NCBI GenBank assembly: GCA_965237955.1
Contig: OZ250169.1
Span: 1,120,001 to 1,184,000, forward strand
DNA: 64,000 bases
Source: Candidatus Marinacidobacterales bacterium
GTDB lineage: Bacteria; Acidobacteriota; Vicinamibacteria; Marinacidobacterales; SMYC01
Direction of reading: 5' to 3'
Below are positions 3,733 to 41,045 of the stretch, in pieces. Under the pieces are notes generated by a model. It had not been told where the DNA came from, did no database searches, and worked only from the letters and a program-made list of their open reading frames with translations. How positions within the stretch are numbered: the first letter of the stretch is position 1; each line of letters opens with the position of its first letter. Position numbers and translations under genes: made by a program.

Positions 3733-4343
3733 AAGAATCCATTCCGATACACCTCGTGGTAGAAGACGAGTTAAGTGAAGCGGTCTTGCGTGAAATCTTG
3801 CGACAGTCCGAACGCTCATTCGCCGTGGGTGCAGCATACCGAAGAGGTGGTTCTGGATACCTACGCACAAACGTGAAGAGATTCAACCACGGCGCGAAAG
3901 GGACCCCCTTCATTCTGCTCACCGACCTGGACAAAAACGAATGCGCTCCGATGCTGATTCAGGAGTGGTTGACAGATCCCTTGCACCCTAATTTGATATT
4001 TCGTGTGGCTGTGCACGAGGTCGAAGCCTGGATTCTCGCCGATCGTGAAGCCTTCGCACATTTCCTTGGAATATCTCCGCGGGACATCCCTCCCGAAGTG
4101 GATAGCATTCAAGATCCAAAAGAGAAGTTGATATCCCTAGCGCGGACTTCTCCTAAACGGGACCTGAGAAACTCTCTCATACCCAGAAGGGGTAGCACAG
4201 CCCGCGTTGGACGTGATTACAACGGGAGGCTCTCGGAGTTCGTCCGCAGTAGTTGGAGACTGGCAGAGTCCAAACGGCTCTCGCCCAGCCTTCTGCGAAC
4301 GGCGAACGCGGTCGGGACGTTCGAGCCGCATTGGAGGGGCTAA
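3729..4343 (+). CDS. DUF4276-like TOPRIM-fold protein
   Basis: ATGA overlap with the ATPase. VVED and LTDLD acidic motifs, EVEAWILAD, S.SL C-terminal motif. Confidence 0.75.
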   Translation: MKESIPIHLVVEDELSEAVLREILRQSERSFAVGAAYRRGGSGYLRTNVKRFNHGAKGTPFILLTDLDKNECAPMLIQEWLTDPLHPNLIFRVAVHEVEAWILADREAFAHFLGISPRDIPPEVDSIQDPKEKLISLARTSPKRDLRNSLIPRRGSTARVGRDYNGRLSEFVRSSWRLAESKRLSPSLLRTANAVGTFEPHWRG

Positions 4344-22410: not shown

Positions 22411-24966
22411 ATGACTGCACCCGACGCACAACTACTGAGCCAGGACGCTTATGCAGAAGTCACCGCTGCCAACCTTCTCGAACGTCTCGACCTCGAGCGG
22501 TTGGATATATCCAACCGCCTAGCGGTCGATCCGAAGCGACGAGCTGATCTAGGGCAGTTCTTCACTCCAGCAGGCGTGGCCCACTTCATGGCTGCCATGC
22601 TGCTGGTTCCAAAGCCGCCGAAAGAACTCCGCATCCTCGACGCCGGAGGAGGGAGCGGCATCCTCACAGCCGCGGCCGTCGCCGAGTTCTGCGCTAGGCC
22701 GAAGCCAAAGCGGCCCCATGCGTTGCACGCCACGGTCTGGGAGATCGACGAGTTGCTCTCCAGGGACTTAGCCCGCACCTTCGAACACTGCCGAGTAGCT
22801 TGCGACGAAGCAGGAGTTCGATTCACTGGAGAACTCCGCCAAGAGAACTTCATCCTAGGTGCCGCCGACCTGGTCGGCGGTGGTGGACTCCTTACCCTGG
22901 GGTGCCCGCGCTTCCACGTGGTAATCATGAACCCGCCCTACCGCAAGCTCAGAAGCGACAGCGCCGAGCGCGAACGCATGAGCTCGGTTGGAATCGAAAC
23001 CAGCAACCTCTACTCCGCCTTCGTCTGGCTCGCACTTGAGCTCCTTGAGGACGGCGGTGAACTCGTGACGATTACGCCGCGCAGCTTCATGAACGGGTCC
23101 TACTTCCGCCCGTTTCGTCAGGCGCTCTCCCGCACGCTCGCTTTCCGCCGCGTTCACGTCTACGACGCCCGCGATGTCGCCTTCGTCGGCGACGCTGTGC
23201 TCCAGGAGAACGTCATCTTCCACGGCGTCCGAGGAGGTGCCCGCAGGAAGGTCAGGATCACAACCTCGCTTGGTCCGGCCGACGCCGGTTTAGCTGAGCG
23301 GACCATCGACCCGGCTGAGCTGATCCTTCCGAGCGACCCGAAGTGCGTGCTGCATCTCGTTCCCGACGAGACCGACGCTCGGATCGCTGAGCAGATGCGG
23401 GCATTGCCGCACACGCTCTTAGACCTTGGCGTTTCGGTCTCTACAGGCCGCGTGGTCGGTTTCCGGGCCAAGGAACGCCTGCATGCAGCAGCAAGAGAAG
23501 GAGATGCGCCCCTAATCTTCCCCAGGCACTTCGCACATGGGTTCGTGACTTGGCCAAAGGCGGCGGGCTCGAAACCGAACGCCTTGGCCGTGTCCGGCCA
23601 CGATGACGACCTCCTGCTTCCCACAGGTTGGTACGTCTTGATCAATCGCTTCAGCGCGAAGGAGGAGAAGCGGCGCGTGGTCGCAGCGCTCTACGATCCT
23701 GCGCGCATCAACGCTGAAGGCGTTGCCTTCGACAACAAGTTGAACGTCCTGCACTGTGACGACGCCGGTCTGTCCGAAGACCTAGCCAAGGGGCTCGCGG
23801 TCTTCCTGAACAGCACGGCGATCGACGCCTACTTCCGCCAGTTCAGTGGACACACTCAGGTCAATGCTGGCGATCTGCGCTCGCTGCGCTTCCCAAACGC
23901 CGGTGAGCTCAAGCGACTAGGCCGCCGCATCGGTCGCTCGATGCCAACGCAGGACGAGATCGATCAACTAATCAGAGAGGAGGTTCCCGCCATGAATGAA
24001 GGAGACGACCCGGTAGCAGTGAAACGAAGGGTTCAGGCCGCCGAAAGTATCCTGAAAGCCCTGGGGGCACCGAAGGGACAGCGCAACGAACGATCGGCCC
24101 TCACCCTTCTCGGGTTGCTCGACCTTGCTCCTATGGACGCATGGTCCGCAACCAGCGCACCGCTCCGCGGTGTCACTGAACTCATGGACTGGATGGCCGC
24201 GAACTACGGCAAGCAGTACGCACCCAACACGCGCGAGACGATCCGCCGCTTCACCCTTCACCAGTTCATCGAGATGGGTTTGGTCCTGCTCAACCCGGAC
24301 GATCCCAAGCGGCCTCCGAACAGCCCGAAGAACGTCTACCAGATCGAACCCTCGGCGCTCAAGCTGCTCCAGTGCTTCGAGACCGACGAGTGGGACGGTA
24401 ACTTGGCCAGCTATCTCAAGTCGATGGAGGGAAAAAACCGCCTTCGCGAGAAGGCTCGGCAGATGGAGTGCATCCCCATCACTCTTCCGGACGGCCAGAC
24501 GCTCGAACTCACGGCCGGCGGCCAGAACATCCTCGTCAAAGAGATCGTTGAGCAATTTGCGCCGCGCTTTACGCCCGGCGGCTACGTGGTCTATGTCGGC
24601 GACACCGGCGAGAAGCATCTGTTCTACTATGTCGATTATCTGAAGGGCTTGGGCGTCGAGATCGACCCGCACGGCAAGATGCCGGACGTGGTGATCCATC
24701 ACGTCGAGCGCAACTGGCTCATTCTCATCGAGGCCGTCACCTCGCACGGCCCGGTGAACATCCTGCGCCACAACCATCTCAAGGATCTCTTTGCGGGATC
24801 AACGGCTGGGCTCGTCTTCGTAACGACATTCCTCGATCGTGCGGCGATGCGCGAGTACCTGCCCGAGATTGCCTGGGAAACGGAAGTCTGGGTCGCCGAC
24901 GCACCCGGGCACCTCATCCACTTCAACGGCGAGCGCTTCCTCGGGCCGTACAAGAGCGGCGAGTAG
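22411..24966 (+). CDS. Fused N6-adenine DNA methyltransferase and BsuBI/PstI-family restriction endonuclease
   Basis: GQFFTP, LDAGGGSG, MNPPY, FSGHTQVNA (MTase), then YAPNTRETIRRFTLHQF, HGKMPDVV, IEAVTSHGP, IAWETEVW, HFNGERFLGP (REase), in one 851-aa ORF. Confidence 0.9.
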   Translation: MTAPDAQLLSQDAYAEVTAANLLERLDLERLDISNRLAVDPKRRADLGQFFTPAGVAHFMAAMLLVPKPPKELRILDAGGGSGILTAAAVAEFCARPKPKRPHALHATVWEIDELLSRDLARTFEHCRVACDEAGVRFTGELRQENFILGAADLVGGGGLLTLGCPRFHVVIMNPPYRKLRSDSAERERMSSVGIETSNLYSAFVWLALELLEDGGELVTITPRSFMNGSYFRPFRQALSRTLAFRRVHVYDARDVAFVGDAVLQENVIFHGVRGGARRKVRITTSLGPADAGLAERTIDPAELILPSDPKCVLHLVPDETDARIAEQMRALPHTLLDLGVSVSTGRVVGFRAKERLHAAAREGDAPLIFPRHFAHGFVTWPKAAGSKPNALAVSGHDDDLLLPTGWYVLINRFSAKEEKRRVVAALYDPARINAEGVAFDNKLNVLHCDDAGLSEDLAKGLAVFLNSTAIDAYFRQFSGHTQVNAGDLRSLRFPNAGELKRLGRRIGRSMPTQDEIDQLIREEVPAMNEGDDPVAVKRRVQAAESILKALGAPKGQRNERSALTLLGLLDLAPMDAWSATSAPLRGVTELMDWMAANYGKQYAPNTRETIRRFTLHQFIEMGLVLLNPDDPKRPPNSPKNVYQIEPSALKLLQCFETDEWDGNLASYLKSMEGKNRLREKARQMECIPITLPDGQTLELTAGGQNILVKEIVEQFAPRFTPGGYVVYVGDTGEKHLFYYVDYLKGLGVEIDPHGKMPDVVIHHVERNWLILIEAVTSHGPVNILRHNHLKDLFAGSTAGLVFVTTFLDRAAMREYLPEIAWETEVWVADAPGHLIHFNGERFLGPYKSGE

Positions 24967-27211: not shown

Positions 27212-27289
27212 TCGAAGAGCTTGCCTGCCAGTGGGGAACGGGCTGCACGGCCCTTCGTCGTGCGTCTCCTTGGTTTGGCAGCCCCTGCC

Positions 27290-27403
27290 TGCCTTGGTGC
27301 ATAACTCTGGACAACTCTAAAGGAATCAGCAGGTTACGTTTTTGGTGCAAAAATAGCAGAGTCAATGGAATCAATGACTTACCTGTATTTATGCACCAAG
27401 GCA
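27290..27403 (+). mobile_element. 114-bp MITE, copy A
   Basis: 15-bp TIR TGCCTTGGTGCATAA/TTATGCACCAAGGCA. Identical inverted copy at 40932-41045. Confidence 0.9.
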
Positions 27404-27430: not shown

Positions 27431-27832
27431 ATGTCCGAACCTGGAGAAGCGAGTGGAGAAGTCATTGGCCGGCATCTGATTGCCGACATGACGGGGTTGT
27501 CCCCAGCCCTCCTGCGTGATGGCGATCGGATCATGCGTGTACTGAAGGAGGCGCTGGCGCAGGCAGGCTTTCACTGCATCAGGAGCGTGGAGCATCACTT
27601 CCTCGAGCGTGGCGCGGGGTTTACGGGGATAGTCCTTCTGGTGGAATCCCATGCCGCCGTTCATACCTATCCCGAGCGGAAATATCTCGCGCTGGACATC
27701 TTTGCTTGCGGCAGGCTCGATCCTTCCAGCGTTATGGACGCGTTGGTTTCAAAGCTAGGTCCTGCAGCAGTCGACGTACGGACTTTCACACGCACCCCTC
27801 GCGCCACCATTCCCGCACACACAGATACCTGA
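27431..27832 (+). CDS. speD: S-adenosylmethionine decarboxylase proenzyme (small class 1B)
   Basis: GRHLIAD, GFTGIVLLVESHAAVHTYPE, DIFACG (ESH autocleavage motif). Confidence 0.88.
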   Translation: MSEPGEASGEVIGRHLIADMTGLSPALLRDGDRIMRVLKEALAQAGFHCIRSVEHHFLERGAGFTGIVLLVESHAAVHTYPERKYLALDIFACGRLDPSSVMDALVSKLGPAAVDVRTFTRTPRATIPAHTDT

Positions 27833-27889
27833 CCCGAGGGATATCACCCGAAAATGTTCGGGGTGGGACAGGCCGGATTCGGCCTGCCG

Positions 27890-28894
27890 TCAGAAGGTCC
27901 ACACGATCAGGATCGAAGCGCCGACGTAGCCGAAGGCTTCGAGGAGGCCAGCACCGATGTTTGGATGTTCCTGCGTCTGCTCGTCGGCAAGCTTGACGCC
28001 GGGTGCCAGCAAGATGTTGGTGAGTTTGTGGACGAGGAACAACATGATGAAGCCAAATGCCACGTCGACGGCGAACAGCATCAGGCTATCGGTCCAACTG
28101 GTGAAATCGCCGCCGACAGCGACACTGATGATATTACCGATACCGATGAGCGCCCCTCCGAACGCCAGGCCCACCGCGGCGTTGTCTCGCTCCAATTCTT
28201 CAAGAAACTTGTACGGGGTCACCAGCTCGTACAGTCGTCCGGCGATGACCAGCACCACCTGGGCGATTAGCCAGAAAACCAGCAGGACGAGCATGCCGGA
28301 ACCCACGGCGCCGATTGCGCTCGCCGCGGGAGAAGCTCCTCCCGCATCGCCCTGAGTCGCGCGGAGAATGATCAGGCCGTTGGCGATGTATACGCCAGCC
28401 TCGACAAACCCAACGCCGAGGTTGCGATCTTCGACAACCTCTTTGGTGTTATTGAATGTAGGCAGAAGGATCTTCTCGCACATGAAGCTCGCCAGAAGCA
28501 TGAGGACGATCGCGGAAAGACCGTAGATACCGATCGTAACCACGTCGGTGCTCAGACCCCGTGATTCGCCCGAAATCGCCCCGCCGAACGCGATCAGGAT
28601 TCCAAAGTAATAGCCAACCGTGGAGATTGCGAGTGCCTGGTTGTCCCGAGTGAAGAGTTCCGCATTCAAATCCACACGCCGGTACAGGCTGGAATAAGCG
28701 AGCTTCGCGATCCAGAAGAGAACAAACGCCTCGAGGATATAAAAGAAGGATTCGCCGATCAGATAGAGATTGTCTACCAGAGAAACCTGCGCCGCTGGTG
28801 GAGTAGGAGTCTGCGCAGCGAGGGCAAATCCCGACCCGGCGAGTACTGAGACGGCTGACAGAAGTAAGACAGTAAAGACCGACTGCTTGCTCAT
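27890..28894 (-). CDS. DUF350 family membrane protein (tandem domains)
   Basis: Repeated E....dN.A.g motifs (DNQALAI, DRNLGVG, DNAAVGL, PNIGAGL) between TM helices. Confidence 0.8.
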   Translation of the reverse strand: MSKQSVFTVLLLSAVSVLAGSGFALAAQTPTPPAAQVSLVDNLYLIGESFFYILEAFVLFWIAKLAYSSLYRRVDLNAELFTRDNQALAISTVGYYFGILIAFGGAISGESRGLSTDVVTIGIYGLSAIVLMLLASFMCEKILLPTFNNTKEVVEDRNLGVGFVEAGVYIANGLIILRATQGDAGGASPAASAIGAVGSGMLVLLVFWLIAQVVLVIAGRLYELVTPYKFLEELERDNAAVGLAFGGALIGIGNIISVAVGGDFTSWTDSLMLFAVDVAFGFIMLFLVHKLTNILLAPGVKLADEQTQEHPNIGAGLLEAFGYVGASILIVWTF

Positions 28895-28926
28895 AATGAA
28901 ACCCCTATTGTGTCCGTCGACGCAGA

Positions 28927-29673
28927 TCACTTTCCCATACTGCGCCCGCCCGAGCCTCCCCGACTGCGGGCTCTGGCCTGGAAACGCGTCTGTTTGGCCT
29001 GATACCTCTGGGAGAAAGATGGCCGCGTTCTGGCCGTCACGGTACCGTTCGCGCCGAAGGCGGGTCGCCCTCCGGTCTGAGGGCCGTAATAAGGCTGACC
29101 ACGATTCCTCATGCCGATGTAGGTGCCGTAGTCCGGCCGGCTGATCCGGTGCCCACCCAGAGCGGTTCTCATGAACGAGTACTGCCCGTACCAGATCCAG
29201 AATCCGCCGGCACCCCAGTGCCCGTAGTGGCTATGACCCACATGCTGATAGTAGGGAGGGTAGCTCTGGTTATAGGCCGTCAAGGTGCCATCCGGCGTCT
29301 TTGAAGCCACTACCATACCGACGGATCGTTCATAGCGGGCCGCCAGCGTGTCGGAGATCGAAAAGGTGTCCACCCGTTCATCAAACTCGGCCGCTTCTCC
29401 CGCGTCGGGGTTCTCACCGATCGGCGCGGTGACCAGGAAGCTGCTCTTGAGCGTCATGGAGTTCCGCAGAAACCCGTCGTCGACATCGTCCACGATGATC
29501 GAATACTCGGGATACTGCGTAAGCTGCCGCACCAACTCTGGAACGGGGTCACGGTTCGAGACGCAGCCGCCGGCCAACCAGAATCCCACCACGATCACGG
29601 CCACAACCGCCCCAAACCGGATCCAGTCCTGGGCTTCCATCAAACCGTGTTGCTCGTTTGTCTGGCGGGGCAT
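28927..29673 (-). CDS. Membrane-anchored hypothetical protein with Gly/Tyr/Arg-rich tail
   Basis: N-terminal TM then GGC, YSIIVDD, YGHW..GGFWIWYGQY, C-terminal RSRGGSGG..GK. Confidence 0.7.
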   Translation of the reverse strand: MPRQTNEQHGLMEAQDWIRFGAVVAVIVVGFWLAGGCVSNRDPVPELVRQLTQYPEYSIIVDDVDDGFLRNSMTLKSSFLVTAPIGENPDAGEAAEFDERVDTFSISDTLAARYERSVGMVVASKTPDGTLTAYNQSYPPYYQHVGHSHYGHWGAGGFWIWYGQYSFMRTALGGHRISRPDYGTYIGMRNRGQPYYGPQTGGRPAFGANGTVTARTRPSFSQRYQAKQTRFQARARSRGGSGGRSMGK

Positions 29674-29711
29674 TCCTAGACTCCTTGGATCATCTCTGTT
29701 TCTGGTAGTTC

Positions 29712-30263
29712 CTACGCGTTTCCGCTCGGAAGGATGTTCGTGAACTGATACTCTTCCACGTATTCGCCGGCGACGGACTTGAAATCCCTTTCTCCGTGCT
29801 GCGTGACGAACAGCACGTTTCTTCCTGAATCGTCACAGTATGCCCAACTGATGAACTCTTTCCCCGGGCCCTCGGCGTCTTCATGGAACAAACCCGCGCC
29901 GCTTTCCATCAGCCTATAGCTCCGGCCATTGTGGGTCAAGCTTGCGGGGGGATCTTCATGTCGGAGGGTATGTTCAACGACGTCCTCGGAAATCTGGCTG
30001 ATAGAAACGCTTTCTGTCAGCGTCCAGGTAGTCTCGCCGTCACTATCAGCCCTCTCCAAGTAGACGACCTTGTCGGAGGTCTCGAGCACCCATTCTTTGG
30101 TCTCGAAGCCGGAGTAGTCGTAGGTGTTGTACCCAGTGACCTCCCATGTCTCCATATCGTAATCGACCAGGTATCCAACCTTCATGGCACCCAGCACAAA
30201 GTCAGCTAGAGGGTCGGATTCAGGGTTGTCCCGCACCCGGCCAAACCATTTCTTCCATCCCAT
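29712..30263 (-). CDS. DUF4178 domain protein
   Basis: VGYLVDYDMETWEV..YDY, EWVL, PPASLTHNGRSY..ESG, FISWAY, GEYV. Confidence 0.8.
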   Translation of the reverse strand: MGWKKWFGRVRDNPESDPLADFVLGAMKVGYLVDYDMETWEVTGYNTYDYSGFETKEWVLETSDKVVYLERADSDGETTWTLTESVSISQISEDVVEHTLRHEDPPASLTHNGRSYRLMESGAGLFHEDAEGPGKEFISWAYCDDSGRNVLFVTQHGERDFKSVAGEYVEEYQFTNILPSGNA

Positions 30264-30292
30264 CGTTCAGTTGCCCCTCGATGAGCGTCGGA

Positions 30293-31888
30293 CTACCATC
30301 GAGCGAAATCTTCGCGATAATACCCCGCGAGAGTCGGCCGTTCCAAGGTATTGGGCTCGACTTCGACACGGGCCATGTCCGCATCGAAATCGAGCCTGGA
30401 CAAGAACAGCTCCTTATTCAGGTAACGCAGCCCGGGCATAAACTCAATGCCGCGGGGATCGATCGGTTCCACGGACCCGAGATGAAAGCCCCACTCGCCG
30501 AAGGAAGGTACGTAGGCGTGAAAAGAGAGCACCTCGAAATCCGCTTCTTCCATCGATTCGCCGATGCACCAGTAGGCCCGGCGCGCGTAGTAGGGGCTTG
30601 TCGCCTGGGTGAGTACCACGCCTCCGGGAGCCAGATGCCGCCGAATCAGCCTGTACGCTTCGACCGAGAACAGTTTTGAGATTCCCTCTTCTCGCGGATC
30701 CGGCAGATCGATTATCACGACAGAATAGGCTTCGTGTTCCCTCTGCAGAAAAGTAAACCCATCCTCGTTAGTCACGCGAACCCGCGGATGGCTCAAGGCG
30801 TTCCGGTTCAGGTCCGTGAAATAAAGATTACGCGTGGCCAGTGTCGTCATCGCCGGATCGAGGTCCACGAGCTCGATCTCTTCCACCTTGGAATACCGGA
30901 GGATCTCACGAACGGCCAGACCGTCACCGCCGCCGATGACGAGAACCCGCGCTCGGTTCCGCGATAACGCCATTGCCGGGTGAACCAGCGCTTCGTGATA
31001 CCGGTATTCGTCGACTGAGGAGAACTGCAGATGCCCGTTCAAAAAGAGTCGGGTTTCGTCCTTCCAACGCGTAACCACGATCTTCTGATACTCGGTCTGC
31101 GTGCTGAAAACCACCTGGCCTTCGTAGAGGGAATCTTCCCAGCGCTCCATCAGGGGCTCGGCTTGAATTGCGAACACGACCAATAGACCGGAAACCAGGA
31201 CGCCCTGAAGCAAGAGTCCTTCCCGGTCCCTGGCCGATAGCTGAGCCCACACTGCCACAAGAATGGCCGAACCGGCAAGAAGGTTGAGGGCGCCGGCGAC
31301 GAGTGATGTATGAAACGCTCCGAGAACCGGCAAACAAAAAAACGGGAAGAGAACAGCCGCGACCAGAGCGCCAACGTAATCGACCGAAAGCACATTCGAC
31401 AGGATCGTCCGTAACGATCCGTGTCTTCTCAGGATCCGTGTCAGGAGGGGGATTTCCAGCCCGATTAGCGTGCCGATGATCAGGATGATGACGAGCATCA
31501 GGTACTGGTAGACGTCGGTGTAGGCATAAGCGAGGTACAGAGCGGGAACTGTCAAACCACCGAACAACCCCAGCCAGATTTCCAACGCCACCAGCCGCCG
31601 GATCAATTTGGCGTGAATGGCTCGCGACACCCACGATCCCAGGCCCATCGCGAAAAGAAAGAAGCCAATCGTCAGGGAGTATTGCTCGACGCTGTTCCCC
31701 AGGAAATACGAGGAGATACTTCCGACCAGCAGCTCGTAGACGATTCCGCACGCCGCGGCGACAAAAACGGATGCGAGTATCAGGAACAAGCTAAACGGCG
31801 ACATCCTTTTCTCATCGGGCCCAACATCGCTGAGCTCCAGATCGTTCGTCGCGAGATCGCCGTCAGGTGCCTTAGTAGTCTTTTTCAT
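30293..31888 (-). CDS. speE: Membrane-bound polyamine aminopropyltransferase (spermidine synthase with multi-TM N-terminus)
   Basis: CGIVYELL, GLEIPLL, LFLNGHLQFSSVDEYRYHEALVHP, GGGDG, IDLPDP, VPSFGEWGF. Confidence 0.92.
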   Translation of the reverse strand: MKKTTKAPDGDLATNDLELSDVGPDEKRMSPFSLFLILASVFVAAACGIVYELLVGSISSYFLGNSVEQYSLTIGFFLFAMGLGSWVSRAIHAKLIRRLVALEIWLGLFGGLTVPALYLAYAYTDVYQYLMLVIILIIGTLIGLEIPLLTRILRRHGSLRTILSNVLSVDYVGALVAAVLFPFFCLPVLGAFHTSLVAGALNLLAGSAILVAVWAQLSARDREGLLLQGVLVSGLLVVFAIQAEPLMERWEDSLYEGQVVFSTQTEYQKIVVTRWKDETRLFLNGHLQFSSVDEYRYHEALVHPAMALSRNRARVLVIGGGDGLAVREILRYSKVEEIELVDLDPAMTTLATRNLYFTDLNRNALSHPRVRVTNEDGFTFLQREHEAYSVVIIDLPDPREEGISKLFSVEAYRLIRRHLAPGGVVLTQATSPYYARRAYWCIGESMEEADFEVLSFHAYVPSFGEWGFHLGSVEPIDPRGIEFMPGLRYLNKELFLSRLDFDADMARVEVEPNTLERPTLAGYYREDFARW

Positions 31889-33154
31889 AAGTACAGTGAC
31901 GTATATTTAAGTTGCTGAAAGAGCGCCTCTCTGGCATGATTCTGCCCATTGGAGCAGATAAATGCCTAGAGAATCGCCGTTTGACATTGAGTTGACCGTC
32001 GACGAGCACGATATCCTTGAAGAAACAGCCAGAGCATATACGTCACCGTATATCGATGTTGTTCGTGCAAAGATCATTCTGTATGCCGCCGAAGGCCTGA
32101 CGAACAAGGAGATTGGAGAGCGCCTCGACACTCCGCGACAGATCGTGAGCAAGTGGCGGAAGCGTTTTTTCGACCAACGCCTGGCAGGGCTGCAAGAGCA
32201 GCCCCGCCGGGGGCGGCCCGGCCAGTTTTCCCCCCTCCGTCGTCGTCGCCGTAAAGGCTCTCGCGTGTGAGTTGCCGCACCAAACTGGACTGCCGCTCTC
32301 ACGACTCAGCACCGCGGACCTCCGTCGAGCCGCGATCGACCGTGGGATCGTGGCGAACATCGGACAGACGACCATCTGGCGTTGGTTGAGTGAGGACGCC
32401 ATTAAGCCCTGGACCCATCGTAGCTGGGTGTTCCCGCGCGACCCGGACTTCGAAGCCAAAGCAGCTCCCATTCTCGACCTCTACCAAGGACGTTGGCGTC
32501 GTAAGCCCTTCTCTGGAAACGAGTTCGTCATCAGCGCCGATGAGAAACCCCGTATCCAGTGCCGGCTTCGCACATACCCGACGACTTCGACGGCTCCAGG
32601 GCGGCCGATGCGCATCGAGCATGAGTACTCTCGTGAAGGCACGGTGAACTACCTTGCCGCATGGGATGTTCACCGCGCGAAAGTCTTCGGTCATTGCGAA
32701 CCGAAGAGCACGATCGTCTCCTTCGAGCGCTTCGTCGGGCAAGTCATGCGTCGCAAGCCCTATCGCACCGCGAAGCGAGTCTTCTGGATCGTCGATAACG
32801 CTTCCATTCATCGCGGCAAAGCTTCTGTCGAGCGCTTCCGGCAACAGTGGCCTAATTCCGTACTCGTTCATACCCCAACCCATGCCAGCTGGCTCAATCA
32901 AGTCGAGATCTTCTTCTCTATCGTTCAAAGAAAGGTCCTCACCCCGAACGACTTCTTGGCACCCGACGACATCCCTTTCCATCTTTCCAAGTTCGAACGC
33001 TACTACGAGGACATCGCTCGACCCTTTCAATGGAAATTCACCCGCAAAGACCTCAAACAGCTGATGAAACGCCTTGCCGTATACGAACCTCGTCTTGCTT
33101 CCGCCGCTTGACCGTTGAAAAATACGTCACCGAACTTTCGGGATAGCGTACTTA
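31888..33154 (+). mobile_element. IS630 family element inserted at TA (orfA 31962-32270, frameshift at TTTTCCCCCC, orfB to 33111)
   Basis: TAAGTAC...GTACTTA ends with GTGACGTAT sub-repeat. RAKIIL, SADEK, VDNASIH, HASWLNQVEIFFS. Confidence 0.9.
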
Positions 33155-33161
33155 GTGAAGC

Positions 33162-34859
33162 TCATTGAACTGTGGTCGTCTCTCCGGAGAGACCATTGAT
33201 GGATGGTTCGAATGTCCTCCCAAGGCGCTCCAGGACCTGTTCGGCCGCCCGGATGCCGGAAAAACAGGCTTCTTCGAACAGCGGCAGCCCGGTCGTGTCA
33301 CAAGAGGCAAAATAAACGTTCCCGAAAGGCTTCCTCCGAATGGCGCTTTCGCGGCCCCATATGATTCCCGGGCTCGGTCGGATCATGGCGTGACCCCACC
33401 GGTAAACGTCGATGCGGCTGACGTAACGCTCCAGGTCCGGATGGGCCACCAGCAGGTCCTGCATGATCACGTTGACCCAGTAAGGATGTTCTTCTTCCAG
33501 GAGCTTCTGACGAGCAAGGTCAAGCTCCTCGACGAACGGGAGATAGTAAACCAGGACAGATGGGTTGTCTTTGTAGACCTTTCGGGTTTGATGATCAGCG
33601 ACAATGTAGCCCAGGGATCGGCTACTGTAGAGTACATTGTCCCACGCGATCGAGACATCGGCGTTCGTGGGCAGCTCGCTCACATGGACACTGGCGGTCA
33701 GCCAGGGGCTGTAATCGCAGGATTCGATCGCTTCTACCTGAGGCCCGGGCAATCCATCGACCAGGAAAGGCGCGGTATGGAGCTTGGAGGCATGGATCAC
33801 GGTTCGGGCCGAAAGACTTCGATAGGTCTCACTGGGGGTGTCGAAGTAACCGACACGAGTGCCGGGATCATCGTTGTCGATCCGGAGCACCGCGCATCCC
33901 AGCCGGTATTGCGAGTTCGCCAGGTCTTGGGCCAAGCGTTGTATGAGAAACCCGTTCCCTGCGGGCCATGTCAAGGTGTCCGAAGGGTACTCGTTCTGCA
34001 GCCGCCGGTCATAGTATCGGCAGGCGAAGTAGTGAATGCCGGCCCAGGCCGACACGGTTGCCATCGTGCCCCCGTAATCGTCCCGGCAAGCGTAATTGAT
34101 CATCCAATCCAACCGCGGCGAATCCCATCCTTTGGAGCGGACGTAGGTTTCCATCGTAATGTCGTCGAGTTGACGAACCCGGGAGTCCGTGGTGCTGTAG
34201 CTCAGAGGGAGGACGAATGCGCGCCGGCCGTCGAAACCGCGGTAAAGGGTCCAGGAAAGCATGTCGTCCTCGAAGGCACGTATGGCTTCCCGTTCCTGCG
34301 TTGAGGCCCCGCTCAGCAGATCCCATTCGATCCATCTTCCGTCCATGAAGAGACGCTCCGCGGGCCATCGCAAGATATGTTGTTCGGGAATCCTCGGACG
34401 TCCGCCCTCGTCGTAGCCTTCGATTATTCCGAGGTCGGACAGGACTTCTTTGACGCAATCCGCTTCCGCGGGTGGAACATTAATATAGTGTGCCCCCCAG
34501 GGGAATTCGGTGCCCTCTGCGCGCCCGGAGGCGGCGGTGCCCCCAAGCCACGGCTGCAGTTCGAGGAGGATAAAGTCGTCCAGTCCGGCCTTTTTCAGCT
34601 TCCACGCCGCGCACAGCCCCGAAACGCCTCCCCCGACGATGGCGACGTCGTAGGTATGAGCTTCAGTCTTGGGAAACCGATCGCGGGGATGAGGTTCGCG
34701 AAGAAGATGCCCCACCTGCTGGTTTCCGCCCACGATTCGCCCCGGGACGTCGAAGGTCCTGGGAACCGAAGTGCTTGAATTCCAGCACGAAGGGACGACC
34801 GCCAAAAGGCCGCTGGTCGCGGATAGACGAAGAAAATCCCGTCGGGTGAAGGGCGACAC
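33162..34859 (-). CDS. Tat-exported FAD-dependent oxidoreductase (amine oxidase-like)
   Basis: TRRDFLR Tat motif, IVGGGVSGL, PWGAHY, YACRDDYG, WAGIHYF, WGHAM, LFEEA. Start uncertain. Confidence 0.88.
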   Translation of the reverse strand: MSPFTRRDFLRLSATSGLLAVVPSCWNSSTSVPRTFDVPGRIVGGNQQVGHLLREPHPRDRFPKTEAHTYDVAIVGGGVSGLCAAWKLKKAGLDDFILLELQPWLGGTAASGRAEGTEFPWGAHYINVPPAEADCVKEVLSDLGIIEGYDEGGRPRIPEQHILRWPAERLFMDGRWIEWDLLSGASTQEREAIRAFEDDMLSWTLYRGFDGRRAFVLPLSYSTTDSRVRQLDDITMETYVRSKGWDSPRLDWMINYACRDDYGGTMATVSAWAGIHYFACRYYDRRLQNEYPSDTLTWPAGNGFLIQRLAQDLANSQYRLGCAVLRIDNDDPGTRVGYFDTPSETYRSLSARTVIHASKLHTAPFLVDGLPGPQVEAIESCDYSPWLTASVHVSELPTNADVSIAWDNVLYSSRSLGYIVADHQTRKVYKDNPSVLVYYLPFVEELDLARQKLLEEEHPYWVNVIMQDLLVAHPDLERYVSRIDVYRWGHAMIRPSPGIIWGRESAIRRKPFGNVYFASCDTTGLPLFEEACFSGIRAAEQVLERLGRTFEPSINGLSGETTTVQ

Positions 34860-35024
34860 TCCTGGATGATACCCCCACCTGCTTGAGAATCGTACCTCCT
34901 CCGCAGAATTTGTGGTCGTGTCTACCCCGGAAAATTCACGAAATAGGAAAAGCAAAAGCCTCTACGTGACAGAAACTTGTGAACGAAGCGTTCACCACGA
35001 AGAAGGCTTTTTGCTGGACCGAAG

Positions 35025-35194
35025 ATTCCGCAACACAGTGTTGGTTGTTTCCCGACCTTTCCCCAAAGAAAGTTCTCGTTCAGCTCGACGGGGATCGTAA
35101 GAGCTCAGACGGTGCCGCAGTGCTGTTGATGGCGATCGACGAGCGTCTGCAGCTGAGTCGGCGACTGCCGAAGTGTTGGCGAGATACCAGGTAA
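35025..35194 (+). pseudogene. IS1380 family transposase N-terminal remnant
   Basis: LFPDLSPKKVLVQLDGDRKSSDGAAVLL..IDERLQL resembles the IS1380 SSDGG.LL motif. Confidence 0.6.
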
Positions 35195-35268
35195 TCCGGG
35201 AAAGTTTTCTTCGAACAATTCCCGGAAGCACTTCACAGGGCTGCTTTCTGGGAGCAGAATACTTCGGT

Positions 35269-36378
35269 ATGCGCCCCCGCTGGATTGCATCGGCCGGTTT
35301 CGACCTCGGGCTCATCATCGGGCCGCCGGTCGCCGCCGTGCTTCTGGTCTTGGCTTTGCCGGCCATGCGGTCCGAGGAGACCCCGGTCTGGGGCTGGGTG
35401 CTCTTCGTTGTCTTCATAGACGTGGCGCATGTCTACGCATCGCTGCATCGGACCTATTTTCAGCCGGACGAATTCGCCCGCAGGAGACTCTTCTACCTGG
35501 CGACGCCTCTGGCGTGCTTTCTGGGAGGCGTCGCGCTCTACAGTCTCGGCTACCAGGTGTTCTGGAGGGTTCTTGCCTACATCGCCGTTTTTCATTTCGT
35601 CCGTCAGCAGTATGGCTTCATGATGGTTTACCGTCATCGCGCGGGTGAGCACTCCCCGCGCGAAGCGCTCCTGGACAAGTGCGCCATCTACGCGACCATG
35701 GTCTACCCCCTGGCGTTGTGGCACCGGGATCCGTCATCCCGAAACTTTCAGTGGTTCGTCGAAGGGGATTTCGTCCAACTGCCGGAATGGGTCGCAACCG
35801 GGGCCGTTGTCTTCTATACGGCATCACTGCTTTTCTTTGCGGCCCGCCAGGTACAGGTTTTCGCCCTCGCGGGAACCGTGAACTGGGGCAAGATCGGCAT
35901 CGTGGGCTCCACCGCTGCTGTCTGGTATGTCGGTATCGCTCTCCTGAATTCCGACTTTGCGTTCACCGTGACGAACGTTGTCGCGCACGGAGTCCCGTAC
36001 ATGGCCCTGGTGTGGCTCTACGGTCGCCGCCGCTGGGCAGGTGATCCTTCCTGGCGGGGAACGATTCATCGTCCCGTAGGCGTCGGTTTGTTCGTCGGCC
36101 TCTTGCTCGCTCTCGCCTACATCGAGGAGGGCCTGTGGGAGCTCTTCGTCTGGCAGGAGCACGCCGAGGTTTTCCTGGGGATGGTTTTGAATTTTGAAGT
36201 GCCTTCCATGGCCCTGACCATCCTCGTACCCCTGCTCACGGTTCCACAGGCGACACACTACATCCTTGACGCCAAGATCTGGAAGTTCGACGGTTCGAAT
36301 CCGAATCTCCATTACTATCTTTTCCTCGAGGGTGAGGTGCCCCAGGCTGGCTCGGAGTCGAAGGTCGGAGGTCGATAG
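35269..36378 (+). CDS. Multi-pass membrane protein with conserved-looking His motifs
   Basis: About 9 hydrophobic segments. DVAHVYASL.RTY, FHFVRQQYG, VAHGVPY, PQATHYILD. Confidence 0.75.
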   Translation: MRPRWIASAGFDLGLIIGPPVAAVLLVLALPAMRSEETPVWGWVLFVVFIDVAHVYASLHRTYFQPDEFARRRLFYLATPLACFLGGVALYSLGYQVFWRVLAYIAVFHFVRQQYGFMMVYRHRAGEHSPREALLDKCAIYATMVYPLALWHRDPSSRNFQWFVEGDFVQLPEWVATGAVVFYTASLLFFAARQVQVFALAGTVNWGKIGIVGSTAAVWYVGIALLNSDFAFTVTNVVAHGVPYMALVWLYGRRRWAGDPSWRGTIHRPVGVGLFVGLLLALAYIEEGLWELFVWQEHAEVFLGMVLNFEVPSMALTILVPLLTVPQATHYILDAKIWKFDGSNPNLHYYLFLEGEVPQAGSESKVGGR

Positions 36379-36512
36379 CTGAGCGAGACTCGCCGAGCGA
36401 GATTCGATGGGAGGGAACCTTCAGGGTAAGAAGGTATCGACCAGCGGATCTCGGTATCCTGACTTTGCCGGTGCTCGGAGAATCCGCTCTCCGACGGGGC
36501 ATGCCATCAAGC

Positions 36513-37214
36513 TCAAATGCCCATTTTCTTCTTGAGCTCAGCCAGCGAGTCACTGGTCTCGGCCGAGCTGGACGCTGCAAGGGTTCTGTCTATCTCCTCG
36601 TCCAGCGTTACGCTCGCGTCCGTCATTTCCCCGTAGGCCTCAGCAAGCGCCTCCTCCTCAACCACTTTGTCCTTCATCTTTTCCAGCAGCGCAATCGTAC
36701 CGGAGGAGTCGACGTTCGACATCTGCTGGTTGATTTTCCGCATCGACGTGGCGGTCTTGGCGCGTGCTCTCAAGGTCACCAGCTCGGTCTCGTAGCGGCT
36801 GGTCGTTTCCTTCAGCGTCTGCACCTTTGCCTGAAGCTGATCCCCCATACTCTTCTGCTGCTCGTGGTCCTTCTTCAAGGCACCTGCGCGTTGCAGGGCC
36901 TCGTCCTTCTTGGTCAAAGCTTCGGTTGCCAGACGTTCCGCTTCAGTTTGCTGCAGATCCCCGCTCTTCATTTTCTGGAGAAGTTGCATCGCTTTCCTCT
37001 CGTAGTCCTTCGCAAGCTTTTTCTGGTTGTCCGAGTCTTTCTTGAGACGAATCGCGATCGCTTTGACCTGCGCCAGACTCTGCATGGAATCCTGCAAGTC
37101 TTTCTTCAAGTCACGAATTCCCTGCTCGGTCAGCTTGATCGGATCCTCGAGCTTATCCACTAGAGAATGCGCCTCGGACTGCACGGTTTTGAAAATTCTT
37201 TGAAAGAAACTCAT
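36513..37214 (-). CDS. PspA/IM30 (bacterial ESCRT-III) family protein
   Basis: MSFFQRIF..., KLEDPIKL.EQ.IRDL, long coiled coil, LAELKKKMG. Confidence 0.92.
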   Translation of the reverse strand: MSFFQRIFKTVQSEAHSLVDKLEDPIKLTEQGIRDLKKDLQDSMQSLAQVKAIAIRLKKDSDNQKKLAKDYERKAMQLLQKMKSGDLQQTEAERLATEALTKKDEALQRAGALKKDHEQQKSMGDQLQAKVQTLKETTSRYETELVTLRARAKTATSMRKINQQMSNVDSSGTIALLEKMKDKVVEEEALAEAYGEMTDASVTLDEEIDRTLAASSSAETSDSLAELKKKMGI

Positions 37215-37232
37215 TTGTCAGCTCCCCTTCGA

Positions 37233-37631
37233 CTATCGGTGACTATATTCCAGCAACTCTGCGCCGTTCTCGGCCAGAGCAAGCTCCAGCGCTCGAATGG
37301 AGCCTTCCAACTCGTTACAATCCAGGTTTTCCAGCTGCAACGTATCGCGGAAGAGGACACGGCTACCTTCTTCGTCGTCGAGCACAAACGCTCCATGTAC
37401 CATCGTTCGGTTCATCTGGAGGAGGCGTTTGAAGAAATCTCCGGGAATCTCGGGGACATCCATGATGAGCTGTTCGAGGATGACGATCGGTGGTTCGCAG
37501 TCGATGATCAGGTTTCGAATTCCATTCTCCTCATCCTCCACGATGACCAACTCCTCGGCCTCATCCTCGCTGACGATGTTCATATCGATATCGAGCAGAT
37601 AGCCCTTGACCAAATCCAGGTTCTCGGACAT
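37233..37631 (-). CDS. YbjN / CesT-Tir chaperone-fold protein
   Basis: Acidic 132 aa, LLQMNRTMVHGAFVLD, FRDTLQLENLD..ELEGSI. Confidence 0.8.
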   Translation of the reverse strand: MSENLDLVKGYLLDIDMNIVSEDEAEELVIVEDEENGIRNLIIDCEPPIVILEQLIMDVPEIPGDFFKRLLQMNRTMVHGAFVLDDEEGSRVLFRDTLQLENLDCNELEGSIRALELALAENGAELLEYSHR

Positions 37632-37633
37632 GT

Positions 37634-37925
37634 TTACTTCTCCTGTTTGTTTGTCTCGCTCTCCAGCCGCTTTTGCGGCTGTTCGTAAGCACTGTTCAAC
37701 CGTTGCGTCAGTTCATCGGCGATTTTTCGTTTCACGGGGTCCTTCGAGATCAGATCCGGATGATATTTCCGCAACAGCCGTTCGATGCTTCCTAACCGTG
37801 GCAAAGTTGAAACCATAGGACACCTCCGGGTTGGAATACAGCTCGGCCAGCTCCGGAACGACGCCCCGTGGCCGTAGTCGCGGCCTGCCGGCCACCGTGG
37901 CCCCGAGTTTAGCTCTGGCGTCCAC
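37634..37925 (-). pseudogene. Frameshifted J-domain protein copy
   Basis: LAELYSNPEVSYGFNFATVR in one frame, RLLRKYHPDL...ELTQRLNSAYEQ in another. Paralog of 38674-39021. Confidence 0.75.
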
Positions 37926-38584
37926 GTGCCCGACCGACGCGATCCCGTCCGCCCGAGTCAGGACGGATCTCGGTTCGAATGAAGCGGATCACGCGGGTCA
38001 CCAGATCCAACGATTCAGTTCCTCAGAAACCACGTTCACGACGACGTTGCGTACCGACGATAATCATAACTCAATATTCGACAGCGATTCCATTCGCACG
38101 ATTCTCTCGACGATTGTGGCTCGTGCATTCTGCAACACGATGACCTAACCCTTCCTCTCGTAACATTTACGCAGTTTTCCCAAAACCTGGCGCACCATCC
38201 GACTCAGTAGCGAGCTCGTGAAGGACTAGGCGAACGACATCCTCATCCTGCGCGCGAAGCGGCAGGACGAGAAAGACAATGTCAGTACGGAACGCGGAGG
38301 GACGCGGCGGGTTTTGGACGCCACAAGCCTCCTTTGGCCCTTCAGGGGGGCGAGCAGGTCCATTTTGGCCAAAGATTCCGTTCCTCCCCAAAATTCGCCT
38401 CCCCTGAACTGATCCTGTCTGTCTCCCTCTCTGGAGCCTTCATCCTTTCGGCCACCTCCTCGCCCTCTAGAGTCTAATTTCTCCTATGCCAGGTGTCTCA
38501 TCATCATAGGCACAGAGGGGCGGCTGCAAGCGGTAGCGTAGCGGGCGACTGTCAAGTTGAACCTGCACTGTTTGTAGTCCGAAC

Positions 38585-38650
38585 ATCTATCGAGTACCAG
38601 GATCGGCGGCTCACAAGCAACCACAAAGTTCTTGATGCCGCTCTCCTTGC
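38585..38650 (-). pseudogene. Fragment of a second YbjN-like gene
   Basis: ESGIKNFVVACEPPILVLD matches ENGIRNLIIDCEPPIVILE of 37233-37631. Confidence 0.65.
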
Positions 38651-38673
38651 CTTGCCTCTGGCGAATCACTTTT

Positions 38674-39021
38674 TCAAGCTTCTTCCAGTCTTTCTCGAAG
38701 CTGTTCATAGGCGTGGTTCAACTTCTTAACGAGTTCAGTTGCGATCTTCTGCCTCGCCGGGTCGGAACAATGGAGGTCGGGATGATACTTTCGCAGAAGC
38801 CGCTTCCAAGCTCTTCGCACGGTTGCCAGATCGGAAGCATAAGGGGCTTCGAGGTTAGCGTAGTATTCCGCGAGCAGGGGATCGACGTTGGGACTCTTTC
38901 GTGCCGTCGGTCCGTCGGATTTGTATCCGCGGTCAGCCGACCCAGACGCAAAGGGCGCTTCCTCACCGCACGGCACAGAAAGGGCACGTATGACCGTGAG
39001 CAGGCGCGACATCAAACTCAT
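38674..39021 (-). CDS. Small J-domain (DnaJ-like) protein
   Basis: YYANLE...VRRAWKRLLRKYHPD...LNHAYEQL. Confidence 0.85.
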   Translation of the reverse strand: MSLMSRLLTVIRALSVPCGEEAPFASGSADRGYKSDGPTARKSPNVDPLLAEYYANLEAPYASDLATVRRAWKRLLRKYHPDLHCSDPARQKIATELVKKLNHAYEQLRERLEEA

Positions 39022-39051
39022 TGTTTGCAACCTCGCCGCACGAGACTCCGC

Positions 39052-40056
39052 TTAGATCTTGCCGTCCGTGATTACGATCAGATGGTCGTTAGCCTCCACT
39101 TTGAAATCGGTCGCTGGGTTGGTCACGACCTGCTTTCCTCTCTGTACCGCAAGTACGATGCTGTTTCTAAGCCGCTTCATCTCCGAAATGACCTCGAGAA
39201 ATTCGTGACCATCCAACGCTGCGGGAAGTTGGACCTTCATGAGAGCATTGGCCGAGCGGGAGGATAGGACCTCTGAGAGGACCTTGGTAATGCCGTGATC
39301 GAGAGTGGCGCTTGCAATCAGGCAGCTGCTGAACTCGGACCCCACTATTACCTCATCGGCGCGGGCTCGCTCGCAATGTTGCACGTTCTCCTTGTTGACC
39401 AATTCTACGATTGTGTACGCCTCCGGGTTAAAAGTCTCCACGGTCAGTGTTGAAAGCACGACCTTTGCGTCCCTTGCGTTGGCCTCCAAGGCATCGTCTC
39501 CCAAGATGACCACTGTGGTCGCATCTTGTACGTTGGCACGCTTCAGATTTTCCTCGGTCACGCTCCCGGAGATGAAGTGCAGGTCGGCGTCGTCCACGGG
39601 TTTCATGTCCGTCTCTGCGAGCAGAACAATCGGTGTTCGAGCACATCGTTCGTCAGATCGAAGCTCATGGAGAATGTCCCGTGCTCGATGGTTCCACCCG
39701 CACAGAATAACGTGACATTTGAACTTGTACGTCCCCATACCGCGCTCTCTTTTGAACCGCTTCTCAATGAAGACACCAGCAACTGTCGCTGTGAAGACAC
39801 CGACAACGCCAATACCACAGAACATGAGTCCTATGCCGATGACTCGGCCCCACAAGGAGCTTGGGGTGATGTCTCCGTAGCCGACCGTTGTGAGGGTTAC
39901 GATGCTCCACCACAGCCAATCTCCGAAGGCCCTGTCAGGCTCGATGAGTTCGAGAGCGAAGGCACTGAAACTCGTCAAGAACAATAGAAGGAAGAAGATC
40001 CGGTATAACCTCTCGCGCCGAAGGAACTCCAAGACGTGCCTGAGCTGTTCTAGCAT
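39052..40056 (-). CDS. 2-TM potassium channel with RCK/TrkA domains
   Basis: WWSIVTLTTVGYGD selectivity filter, HVILCGWN Rossmann fold, C-terminal TrkA_C. Confidence 0.92.
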   Translation of the reverse strand: MLEQLRHVLEFLRRERLYRIFFLLLFLTSFSAFALELIEPDRAFGDWLWWSIVTLTTVGYGDITPSSLWGRVIGIGLMFCGIGVVGVFTATVAGVFIEKRFKRERGMGTYKFKCHVILCGWNHRARDILHELRSDERCARTPIVLLAETDMKPVDDADLHFISGSVTEENLKRANVQDATTVVILGDDALEANARDAKVVLSTLTVETFNPEAYTIVELVNKENVQHCERARADEVIVGSEFSSCLIASATLDHGITKVLSEVLSSRSANALMKVQLPAALDGHEFLEVISEMKRLRNSIVLAVQRGKQVVTNPATDFKVEANDHLIVITDGKI

Positions 40057-40931: not shown

Positions 40932-41045
40932 TGCCTTGGTGCATAAATACAGGTAAGTCATTGATTCCATTGACTCTGCTATTTTTGCACCAAAAACGTA
41001 ACCTGCTGATTCCTTTAGAGTTGTCCAGAGTTATGCACCAAGGCA
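40932..41045 (-). mobile_element. 114-bp MITE, copy B (inverted)
   Basis: Reverse complement of 27290-27403. Confidence 0.9.

Follow-up and report, generated by a model that had tools for sequence, protein, structure and literature searches.

A candidate terminal-lysine acceptor for the membrane-fused aminopropyltransferase of a DUF350 envelope module

We analysed a module of 11 open reading frames (ORFs) at positions 27431..40056 of a 64,000-nt stretch (the window, at its full length) of contig OZ250169.1, assembly GCA_965237955.1. The module encodes a membrane-fused aminopropyltransferase-like protein (SpeE) and a tailed membrane-anchored protein that ends in lysine. We find that such terminal lysines recur in diverse neighbours of membrane SpeE, and we propose, with moderate confidence, that they are the acceptor of the enzyme. 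All 11 ORFs were confirmed at the positions and on the strands given by an earlier note on this DNA, and nine of them belong to clear families (Table 1). The genome (8.13 Mb) is rich in insertion sequences (IS), and the window is dense with them in general.

Table 1. Genes, remnants and mobile elements of the module and its flanks, in window coordinates
Feature	Position	Strand	Match or remark
MITE-like element (miniature inverted-repeat transposable element), 114 bp, 15-bp terminal inverted repeats, left flank	27290..27403	.	100% complementary to 40932-41045
SpeD, S-adenosylmethionine decarboxylase, predicted supply of decarboxylated S-adenosylmethionine (dcSAM)	27431..27832	+	PF02675 (AdoMet_dc) 3e-29; TIGR03330 above cut-off
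Tandem DUF350 (YjfL-type) membrane protein, likely start 28894	27890..28930	-	PF03994, two stretches, 1.5e-47
Membrane-anchored protein of lipoprotein type (putatively Ctha_1186 type), 248 aa, tail rich in G/S/R, end Gly247-Lys248, proposed aminopropyl acceptor	28927..29673	-	
DUF4178 protein	29712..30263	-	PF13785 6e-18
SpeE with seven transmembrane (TM) segments (7TM-SpeE): half major facilitator superfamily (MFS) fold, seventh helix, aminopropyltransferase domain	30293..31888	-	first five codons from IS end
IS630-family element, 1285 bp, in speE 5' end	31871..33155	+	NF033545 above cut-off
Twin-arginine translocation (Tat)-signal flavin amine-oxidase-family protein, likely start 34859	33162..34955	-	PF01593 (Amino_oxidase) 8e-20
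His-motif multi-TM protein, likely start 35272, predicted metal site, inverted here	35173..36378	+	no named family
PspA/IM30 (ESCRT-III-like) protein	36513..37214	-	PF04012 (PspA_IM30) 5e-42
CesT/Tir (YbjN-like) chaperone	37233..37631	-	PF22550 (CesT_Tir_1) 5e-48
J-domain pseudogene, stops and frameshifts, native upstream neighbour of CesT	37637..38070	-	tblastn with L020, L021, L025 J proteins
K+-channel remnant	38062-38191	+	
Remnant of second CesT gene	38586..38654	-	tblastn
Intact small J-domain protein, second module copy	38674..39030	-	PF00226 (DnaJ) 3e-8
Two-TM K+ channel, TVGYG filter, RCK domains, second module copy	39052..40056	-	PF07885 (Ion_trans_2), PF02254 (TrkA_N)
MITE-like element, second 114-bp copy, right flank, inverted	40932..41045	.	

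The gene association of the module core is already published, without a mechanism. A single paper that brings PspA, DUF350 and spermidine together was found. In the parts of it consulted here, Ravi et al. (2024; PMC11237479) describe a second major group of loci (Shewanella oneidensis SO_3765 region) with CesT/Tir-PspA, a 7TM spermine/spermidine synthase, an 8TM YjfL/DUF350 protein, DUF4178 and a Ctha_1186 lipoprotein. A further group, of ligase type, has a K+ channel, and some variants carry AdoMetDC and a polyamine oxidase. As roles the authors consider the sensing of polyamines or the aminopropylation of some other substrate, naming none, and propose effects on membrane structure; these same parts name no acceptor, terminal lysine or topology. 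The earlier note had called the association known and its mechanism lacking, and its general idea, polyamines or aminopropylation linked to PspA, is found in this paper. The window appears to hold the same five partner types and PspA: adjacent CesT/Tir and PspA genes, the SpeE-7TM fusion, an 8TM DUF350 protein, DUF4178 and, probably, the lipoprotein; a profile of the window protein (A3) matches partners in the gammaproteobacterial loci L223 (E 4e-10) and L226 (E 5e-6). L226 also holds CesT- and PspA-like ORFs. The window differs by the addition of SpeD, the Tat flavin oxidase, the K+ channel, the J-domain protein and the His-motif protein, which belong to other groups or are unlisted in the parts consulted.

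We wondered which genes accompany membrane SpeE elsewhere. We collected 180 loci by SpeE similarity: 80 from GTDB, spanning about a dozen phyla according to the record titles, 80 from metagenomes and 20 from a sample of 151 Pseudomonadota genomes. Full context (at least 4.5 kb upstream and at least 3 kb downstream) was available for 74 of them. Partners in these were DUF350 (62 loci), the oxidase (40), SpeD (37), the His-motif protein (19), PspA (14, two of which, in L045 and L204, are possible coiled-coil false matches), CesT (11), the K+ channel (11), the lipoprotein found in the window (11) and the J-domain protein (9); DUF4178 counts miss fused forms. One locus (L033) was out of frame in alignment A1 and was dropped, ten were skipped by the motif filters, and near-duplicates were removed for alignment A2. 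The constant core consists of SpeE, DUF350 and a tailed partner, and PspA and the K+ channel are accessories. All ten partners occurred together only in L020 and L021, which are close relatives. The expectation that all 11 genes would be conserved as a unit, and that the chemistry would be obligatorily coupled to PspA and K+ gating, is not supported by these counts.

SpeE of the window passes NCBIfam NF002956 (619.6 bits, cut-off 472) and matches Pfam Spermine_synth (4e-36); against TIGR00417, the canonical soluble spermidine synthase, it reaches 134.9 of the 249.55 bits that the model demands, and it is membrane-fused. We obtained an AlphaFold2 model of high confidence (pLDDT 92.8, pTM 0.86), in which residues 1-184 are predicted to form one MFS half. 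This part matches OxlT (Z 20.3, root-mean-square deviation (rmsd) 2.4, 175 residues aligned) and FLVCR2 (Z 20.2), with rmsd values in the range 2.3-2.4. Each chain has a single six-helix MFS half and seven TM segments in all. MFS halves begin and finish in the cytoplasm, so helix 7 is predicted to lead outward. The charge distribution agrees with this topology: over 51 sequences the mean number of Lys+Arg per loop was 1.55, 0.20, 2.80, 0.33, 3.00, 0.75 and 3.14, an alternation that fits a cytoplasmic N-terminus, with about 3 in loops 2-3, 4-5 and 6-7 versus 0.2-0.75 in loops 1-2, 3-4 and 5-6. The linker past helix 7 is acidic. The aminopropyltransferase site is thus predicted by the model to face outward. 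Four acidic residues lie within the membrane, E52, E145 and D170 being invariant and E103 present in 50 of the 51 sequences, and they would fit a cationic dcSAM cargo.

The catalytic domain has retained the hallmarks of an aminopropyltransferase. Its best fold match is the Thermus thermophilus enzyme 1UIR (Z 34.9, rmsd 2.9, 278 residues aligned), and both the motif-I acidic residue (D322 here) and the catalytic Asp (D394 here) are present in 174/175 homologues. Solved soluble enzymes (1UIR, Pyrobaculum 7XIF and the thermospermine synthase 6BQ2) share fold and catalytic motifs with it. However, they are soluble, use free-amine acceptors and carry Ile or Gln where membrane SpeE has an invariant Arg. 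This residue, R296, was found in all 175 membrane SpeE motifs, whereas a counterpart is absent from two soluble SpeE proteins of the same loci, from the soluble SpeE of the same genome and from the three solved enzymes compared; it is a candidate carboxylate binder. SpeD of the module has an intact self-cleavage motif (E72-S73-H74 and C93, invariant in 61/61 aligned). At another site the genome has a separate speD-speE-like pair of soluble enzymes, with SpeD above the NCBIfam cut-off and SpeE under the speE cut-offs. The retained residues, the predicted outward site and this separate pair all support the earlier proposal that SpeE aminopropylates an envelope substrate rather than making free spermidine. 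Li et al. reportedly noted in 2019 clusters of AdoMetDC, an MFS-SpdSyn fusion and DUF350, and suspected an acceptor other than putrescine, which they are not known to have identified; the fusions reportedly failed to make spermidine in E. coli.

What could the acceptor be? The membrane-anchored protein encoded beside DUF350 has only a sub-threshold Pfam match and had been described before as Gly/Arg-tailed. Its tail is rich in Gly, Ser and Arg. A Gly-Lys end is found in 19/19 locus homologues and in 31/33 database homologues (the protein of the window included), the two exceptions having no tail. Homologues beside gammaproteobacterial SpeE genes also end in Gly-Lys, and distant homologues have a lipobox. 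In other loci the partners that end in Lys are 45-100-aa single-TM peptides, DUF4178-type fusions (~380 aa) or other lipoproteins.

We quantified these ends in several ways. A strict filter (Gly-Lys end, G/S/R-rich tail, within 3.5 kb, same strand) was positive in 56/80 GTDB, 28/80 metagenome and 11/20 Pseudomonadota loci; opposite-strand controls gave 1, 0 and 0, and random windows 5/300. A second test was blind to the last residue and took all small single-TM ORFs up to 1 kb upstream of SpeE in 151 loci. Lysine was the last residue in 66/130 of these ORFs, versus 5/21 on the opposite strand and 14/527 in 3 Mb of the genome of the window; the ORFs without it were mostly acidic tails of DUF4178 fusions. 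Pooling the filters, adding 15 partners by eye and dropping one strict-filter positive (L050, with an RNA-helicase-like end), we found a K-tailed partner in 122/180 loci, with 115 distinct tails. The residue before the lysine was Gly in 101 of these, His in 11, Val in 2 and Ala in 1. BLAST sorts the bodies into 46 clusters; as short peptides cluster poorly, the unrelated scaffolds number no more than that.

The K-tail goes with DUF350. Among full-context loci a K-tailed partner was present in 61/62 with DUF350 versus 3/12 without it. Among all loci with DUF350 it was present in 116/126; of the ten that lack it, nine are short in their flanks. Three apparent exceptions were resolved when the peptide was located in a divergent unit with DUF350 and SpeD. 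DUF4178-type fusions upstream of a K-tailed peptide (L052, L131, L162, L196 and others) have a terminal TM helix, a conserved Arg-Trp-x-x-Ser-Asp motif and an acidic tail, which is a possible counterpart to the basic K-tail.

A mirror case is provided by operons that carry a glutathionylspermidine-synthase-like (GspS-like) ATP-grasp ligase in place of SpeE. DUF350 is common to both operon types. The E. coli yjfI-J-K-L-M-C and tolC-ygiB-ygiC operons (the third group of Ravi et al., with a DUF1190 lipoprotein and a ligase) resemble the window in CesT-PspA, DUF350, an exported partner with a G/S/R-rich tail and sometimes a K+ channel. They differ in the enzyme and in the tail: ligase and Gly-Gly there, SpeE and Lys here. 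YjfM and YgiB end in Gly-Gly, and their genes directly precede those of two annotated peptide-spermidine ligases, YjfC and YgiC; for YgiC, the part consulted of PMC11762307 states that the physiological substrate is unknown. No GspS-like ligase gene is found among the ORFs of the window module, which is not a YjfC/YgiC-DUF1190 operon. The window lipoprotein matches DUF1190 with an hhalign probability of 12% over 33 columns only, the DUF1190 profile had no match in the SpeE loci, and the Atlas matches are lipoprotein clusters without a name.

Applying one symmetric filter to SpeE loci and to stand-alone GspS-like loci from Pseudomonadota and Bacillota, we found a tailed ORF in 26/29 of the latter, versus 1/9 bifunctional or long controls. 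Their 28 tails end in Gly-Gly (18), Gly-Ser (4), Ser-Ser (2) or otherwise (4), and none ends in Lys. SpeE loci had a tailed ORF in 89/180, with Lys at the end of 79/101 tails. In these sequences the terminal residue tracks the enzyme, a free Gly carboxyl for the amide ligase and a free Lys amine for the aminopropyltransferase, and both reactions would put a polyamine-like arm on a flexible tail beside DUF350. In Bacillota (L248-L250, L254), ligase partners end in Gly-Ser, Ile-Ser or Ala-Ser rather than Gly-Gly. Among the 151 Pseudomonadota genomes, 16 have a stand-alone GspS-like gene and 20 an NF002956 gene with an overlap of 0; about 2 would be expected, so that mutual exclusion is not significant (P ~0.09, by hand).

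Taken together, these results lead us to favour, as moderately probable, a reading in which SpeE aminopropylates the terminal lysine of its co-encoded membrane-anchored protein, likely yielding a polyamine-capped envelope protein like the ligase product. SpeD would make dcSAM. The half-MFS domain of SpeE would pass dcSAM across the membrane, probably through a SpeE dimer that forms a full MFS, and the predicted outward-facing domain would then transfer the aminopropyl group to the epsilon-amine of Lys248. Judging from the SpeE topology, the Tat signal of the oxidase and the lipoboxes of distant acceptor homologues, SpeE domain, oxidase and acceptor are predicted to come together on the outer side of the membrane. 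The Gly-(N-epsilon-aminopropyl)Lys so formed would be very similar to Gly-spermidine, the expected result of YjfC/YgiC-type ligases acting on Gly-Gly tails. DUF350 may bind the resulting polyamine-like tail, the Tat oxidase and the His-motif protein may be optional tailoring or removing enzymes, and CesT-PspA, the J-domain protein and the K+ channel, found in a minority of loci, may be accessory envelope-stress partners. The reaction would work like the hypusination of eIF5A, in which a polyamine-derived aminoalkyl group is put on a protein lysine and then tailored by oxidation; the enzymes there are unrelated, the group is an aminobutyl from spermidine, and the lysine is internal and cytoplasmic. 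The literature searched, in which subscription journals are thinly covered, yielded nothing on a terminal-Lys acceptor, on a SpeE that faces outward or on the exchange of Lys for Gly-Gly.

More tentatively, and here we would sooner doubt than assert, the two operon types may belong to one C-terminal polyamine-capping system for envelope proteins that spans about a dozen phyla. It would have two interchangeable writers: an aminopropyltransferase whose half-MFS domain exports dcSAM to the outward site of the same enzyme and which acts on a terminal Lys, and a GspS-like ligase that puts spermidine on a terminal Gly. Both would share DUF350 as their reader. The mark would feed optional PspA and K+-channel outputs, and the enzymes that tailor or erase it would be the Tat oxidase and the His-motif protein. 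Membrane-fused SpeE (20/151 sampled Pseudomonadota genomes) and the YgiC/YjfC peptide-spermidine ligases are two enzyme families to which no physiological substrate has been assigned; the rule of Lys versus Gly-Gly proposes one for each and predicts near-identical products. If the favoured reading is true, N-epsilon-aminopropyl-lysine at a C-terminus would be a new protein modification, an S-adenosyl donor would unusually be used outside the cytoplasm, and DUF350 would acquire a function.

Several points weigh against this interpretation. We place the modification of the tail itself just on the probable side. Co-occurrence cannot separate a substrate from a binding motif, and the loci are related by kinship, not independent. 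SpeD was found in only half of the full-context loci. A membrane SpeE without a K-tail in its locus occurs in 9/74 full-context loci and in L134. Paraglaciecola arctica (L054, genome G042) has SpeD beside a SpeE that keeps R296, and the only DUF350 operon there belongs to the ligase/Gly-Gly type and includes a K+ channel; this genome holds both writer types. Cys38 of the window lipoprotein is absent in its closest homologues, which appear signal-anchored, and the orientation of small peptides with Arg-rich tails is less certain than that of the lipoproteins. ATP-requiring ligases are presumably cytoplasmic, so that the two writers would act in different compartments. Finally, the IS630 insertion described below may impair speE expression in the window copy. 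When the catalytic domain of SpeE was predicted in complex with SAM and the 35 C-terminal residues of the lipoprotein, the score was 0.09, the mark being 0.32, and this was counted neither for nor against. In Paraglaciecola and relatives (L054, L044, L051, L055, L066, L071), speD and membrane speE stand in loci that have neither DUF350 nor a K-tail.

These orphan SpeD-SpeE pairs without a K-tail bear on an alternative that we consider unlikely but worth weighing: SpeE may use a small amine (cadaverine, agmatine or a triamine) to build a polyamine outside the membrane, either free or bound to the surface, the Lys tail being an unmodified binding or sorting motif for DUF350 or DUF4178. The closest solved relatives of SpeE are triamine/agmatine and thermospermine aminopropyltransferases, and the module oxidase is of the amine-oxidase family. 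This alternative leaves unexplained why Lys goes with SpeE and Gly-Gly with the ligase despite a common DUF350, and why R296 is specific to membrane SpeE; the reported inability of such fusions to produce spermidine in E. coli also speaks against it.

A terminal lysine on an exported protein also recalls Braun's lipoprotein, whose C-terminal Lys anchors it to the cell wall. The K-tail may likewise be cross-linked to peptidoglycan by a transpeptidase, with SpeE acting elsewhere or only lengthening the linker. An exported lipoprotein that keeps a Lys at the end of its flexible tail would suit such an anchor, as would the association with envelope-stress genes; yet a Gly-Gly tail, as found in the ligase operons, offers an amine only after one has been attached, and we judge the proposal improbable. 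Wall anchoring as a later step is compatible with aminopropylation of the lysine.

The earlier note had left the substrate as lipid or protein. The terminal Lys of the 28927..29673 product points to protein, and the lipid half of the proposal fared poorly. A membrane-bound, predicted outward-facing SpeE might put the aminopropyl group on a lipid of the membrane or on a polymer of the cell wall, with a coupling to remodelling by PspA and to K+ gating, and effects of polyamines or aminopropylation on membrane structure have been proposed in the parts consulted of PMC11237479. However, PspA and the K+ channel accompany a minority of loci whereas the K-tail accompanies nearly every DUF350 locus, and we noticed no lipid-specific gene as a constant partner; we consider this reading improbable.

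Methylation of the tail by the SpeE-like domain, in the manner of the spermidine-synthase-like domain of the protein methyltransferase METTL13, is very unlikely: METTL13 (5wcj) is among the fold matches (Z 16.6) and in half of the loci no SpeD was found, but the motif-I acid and catalytic Asp of aminopropyltransferases are retained and the other half have a linked SpeD whose self-cleavage motif is intact. Just as unlikely is an anti-phage role, another suggestion of the earlier note, for which the recent mobility of the module and a type II restriction-modification (RM) gene and HEC-01 pair in the window would speak; PADLOC 2.0 (2023 library) gave no match for 10/11 proteins and only a partial mad2 methyltransferase-fold match for SpeE, the window is IS-dense in general, and the module moved without the RM gene, which is missing beside its copies in two genomes of another genus (G015 and G018). 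The island that the note had placed near RM and ATPase-TOPRIM genes does have both in the window: a HEC-01 ATPase and TOPRIM-like pair (2584-4343, +; a PADLOC candidate defence system, E 4e-151 and 3e-65), which lies ~23 kb off, and a single 851-aa ORF (22411-24966, +) in which a type II methyltransferase is fused to a BsuBI/PstI-like endonuclease.

The oxidase of the module scores 71.9 bits against a PF01593 cut-off of 19.8, and PDB sequence matches reach only its FAD-binding start. Most of the 72 homologous ORFs have a twin-Arg signal, usually followed by Cys; the oxidase of the module has this Cys and is likely a lipoprotein. The His-motif protein has D50, H53, H108, H239, H329 and D333 (numbered from 35272) invariant in 76 sequences. 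It has no Pfam match, the 76 members share no Pfam family, and the Atlas gave unnamed clusters only. Its model is confident (pLDDT 94.6), and the best structural match, to rhodopsin-like bundles, has a Z of only 7.3; the protein may be Brp/Blh-like or a hydroxylase. Its close homologues stood beside an oxidase gene in 7/7 cases of a phylum sample (L294, genome G538, was left out of this count). The protein belongs to a large unnamed membrane family (3740 matches), whose distant members (9 checked) do not adjoin a Tat oxidase, one truncated module copy apart. PspA belongs to the PspA/IM30 family by Pfam and reaches 46.3 of the 242.95 bits demanded by TIGR02977, the canonical PspA model. The K+ channel has the filter, two-TM pore and RCK domains of an RCK-regulated channel and is 57% identical to the co-oriented channel of L017 and ~30% to the divergent channel of L020, L021 and L025. 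The intact J-domain protein is ~50% identical to those of L020 and L021.

The 11 genes are real, but they do not form the single contiguous co-oriented operon of the second group of Ravi et al. (2024): the inverted His-motif gene sits between pspA and the oxidase gene, and the IS630 element separates the latter from speE. A J-domain pseudogene, a K+-channel remnant and a CesT remnant intervene between CesT-PspA and the intact J-domain and channel genes, so that the locus is a mosaic of two module copies and the intact channel and J-domain genes stem from the second. The IS630 has three further genomic copies (99.7-99.9% identical). It inserted at about codon 4 of speE and is missing at this site in the relatives L020, L021, L023, L025 and L026; in these five, the speE ATG overlaps the stop codon of the oxidase gene. 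In the window, the end of the IS630 (31871-31888) donates an in-frame ATG at 31888 and restores the speE reading frame. The same junction is present in the near-identical copies L018 and L019. In L025 and L026, CesT through DUF350 are co-oriented and free of IS630.

The window copy is a partly decayed, recently transferred version of a known module without a solved mechanism. The copies in G015 and G018 are 99.8% identical over 11.9 kb and 99.9% over 9.5 kb, respectively, versus only 80-85% for a 10-kb comparison stretch elsewhere in the chromosome, which argues for recent horizontal transfer. The two flanking MITE-like copies are unsupported as composite-transposon ends: the element has ~12 related copies genome-wide, and the G015 and G018 module copies end elsewhere. 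The G018 match starts at the left MITE edge, and in G015 one MITE-like copy adjoins the truncated K+-channel gene. An 81-bp repeat (27212-27292) with more than 30 genomic copies lies between an IS5-family element and the left MITE, and a tyrosine-recombinase fragment (PF00589; 40931-41677, +) lies directly past the right one. A plasmid search returned mostly Ralstonia records and none from Actinobacteria.

Metatranscriptome contigs from four runs of three studies match parts of most module genes, the lipoprotein gene without mismatch, as contigs that cannot show transcription or its level; they are nearly absent over IS630, which we did not take as evidence. G015 carries three copies of the lipoprotein-gene region on contig C1, near 592800, 8750900 and 8851500; one is near-identical to the window, two are at 71% protein identity, and some are truncated.

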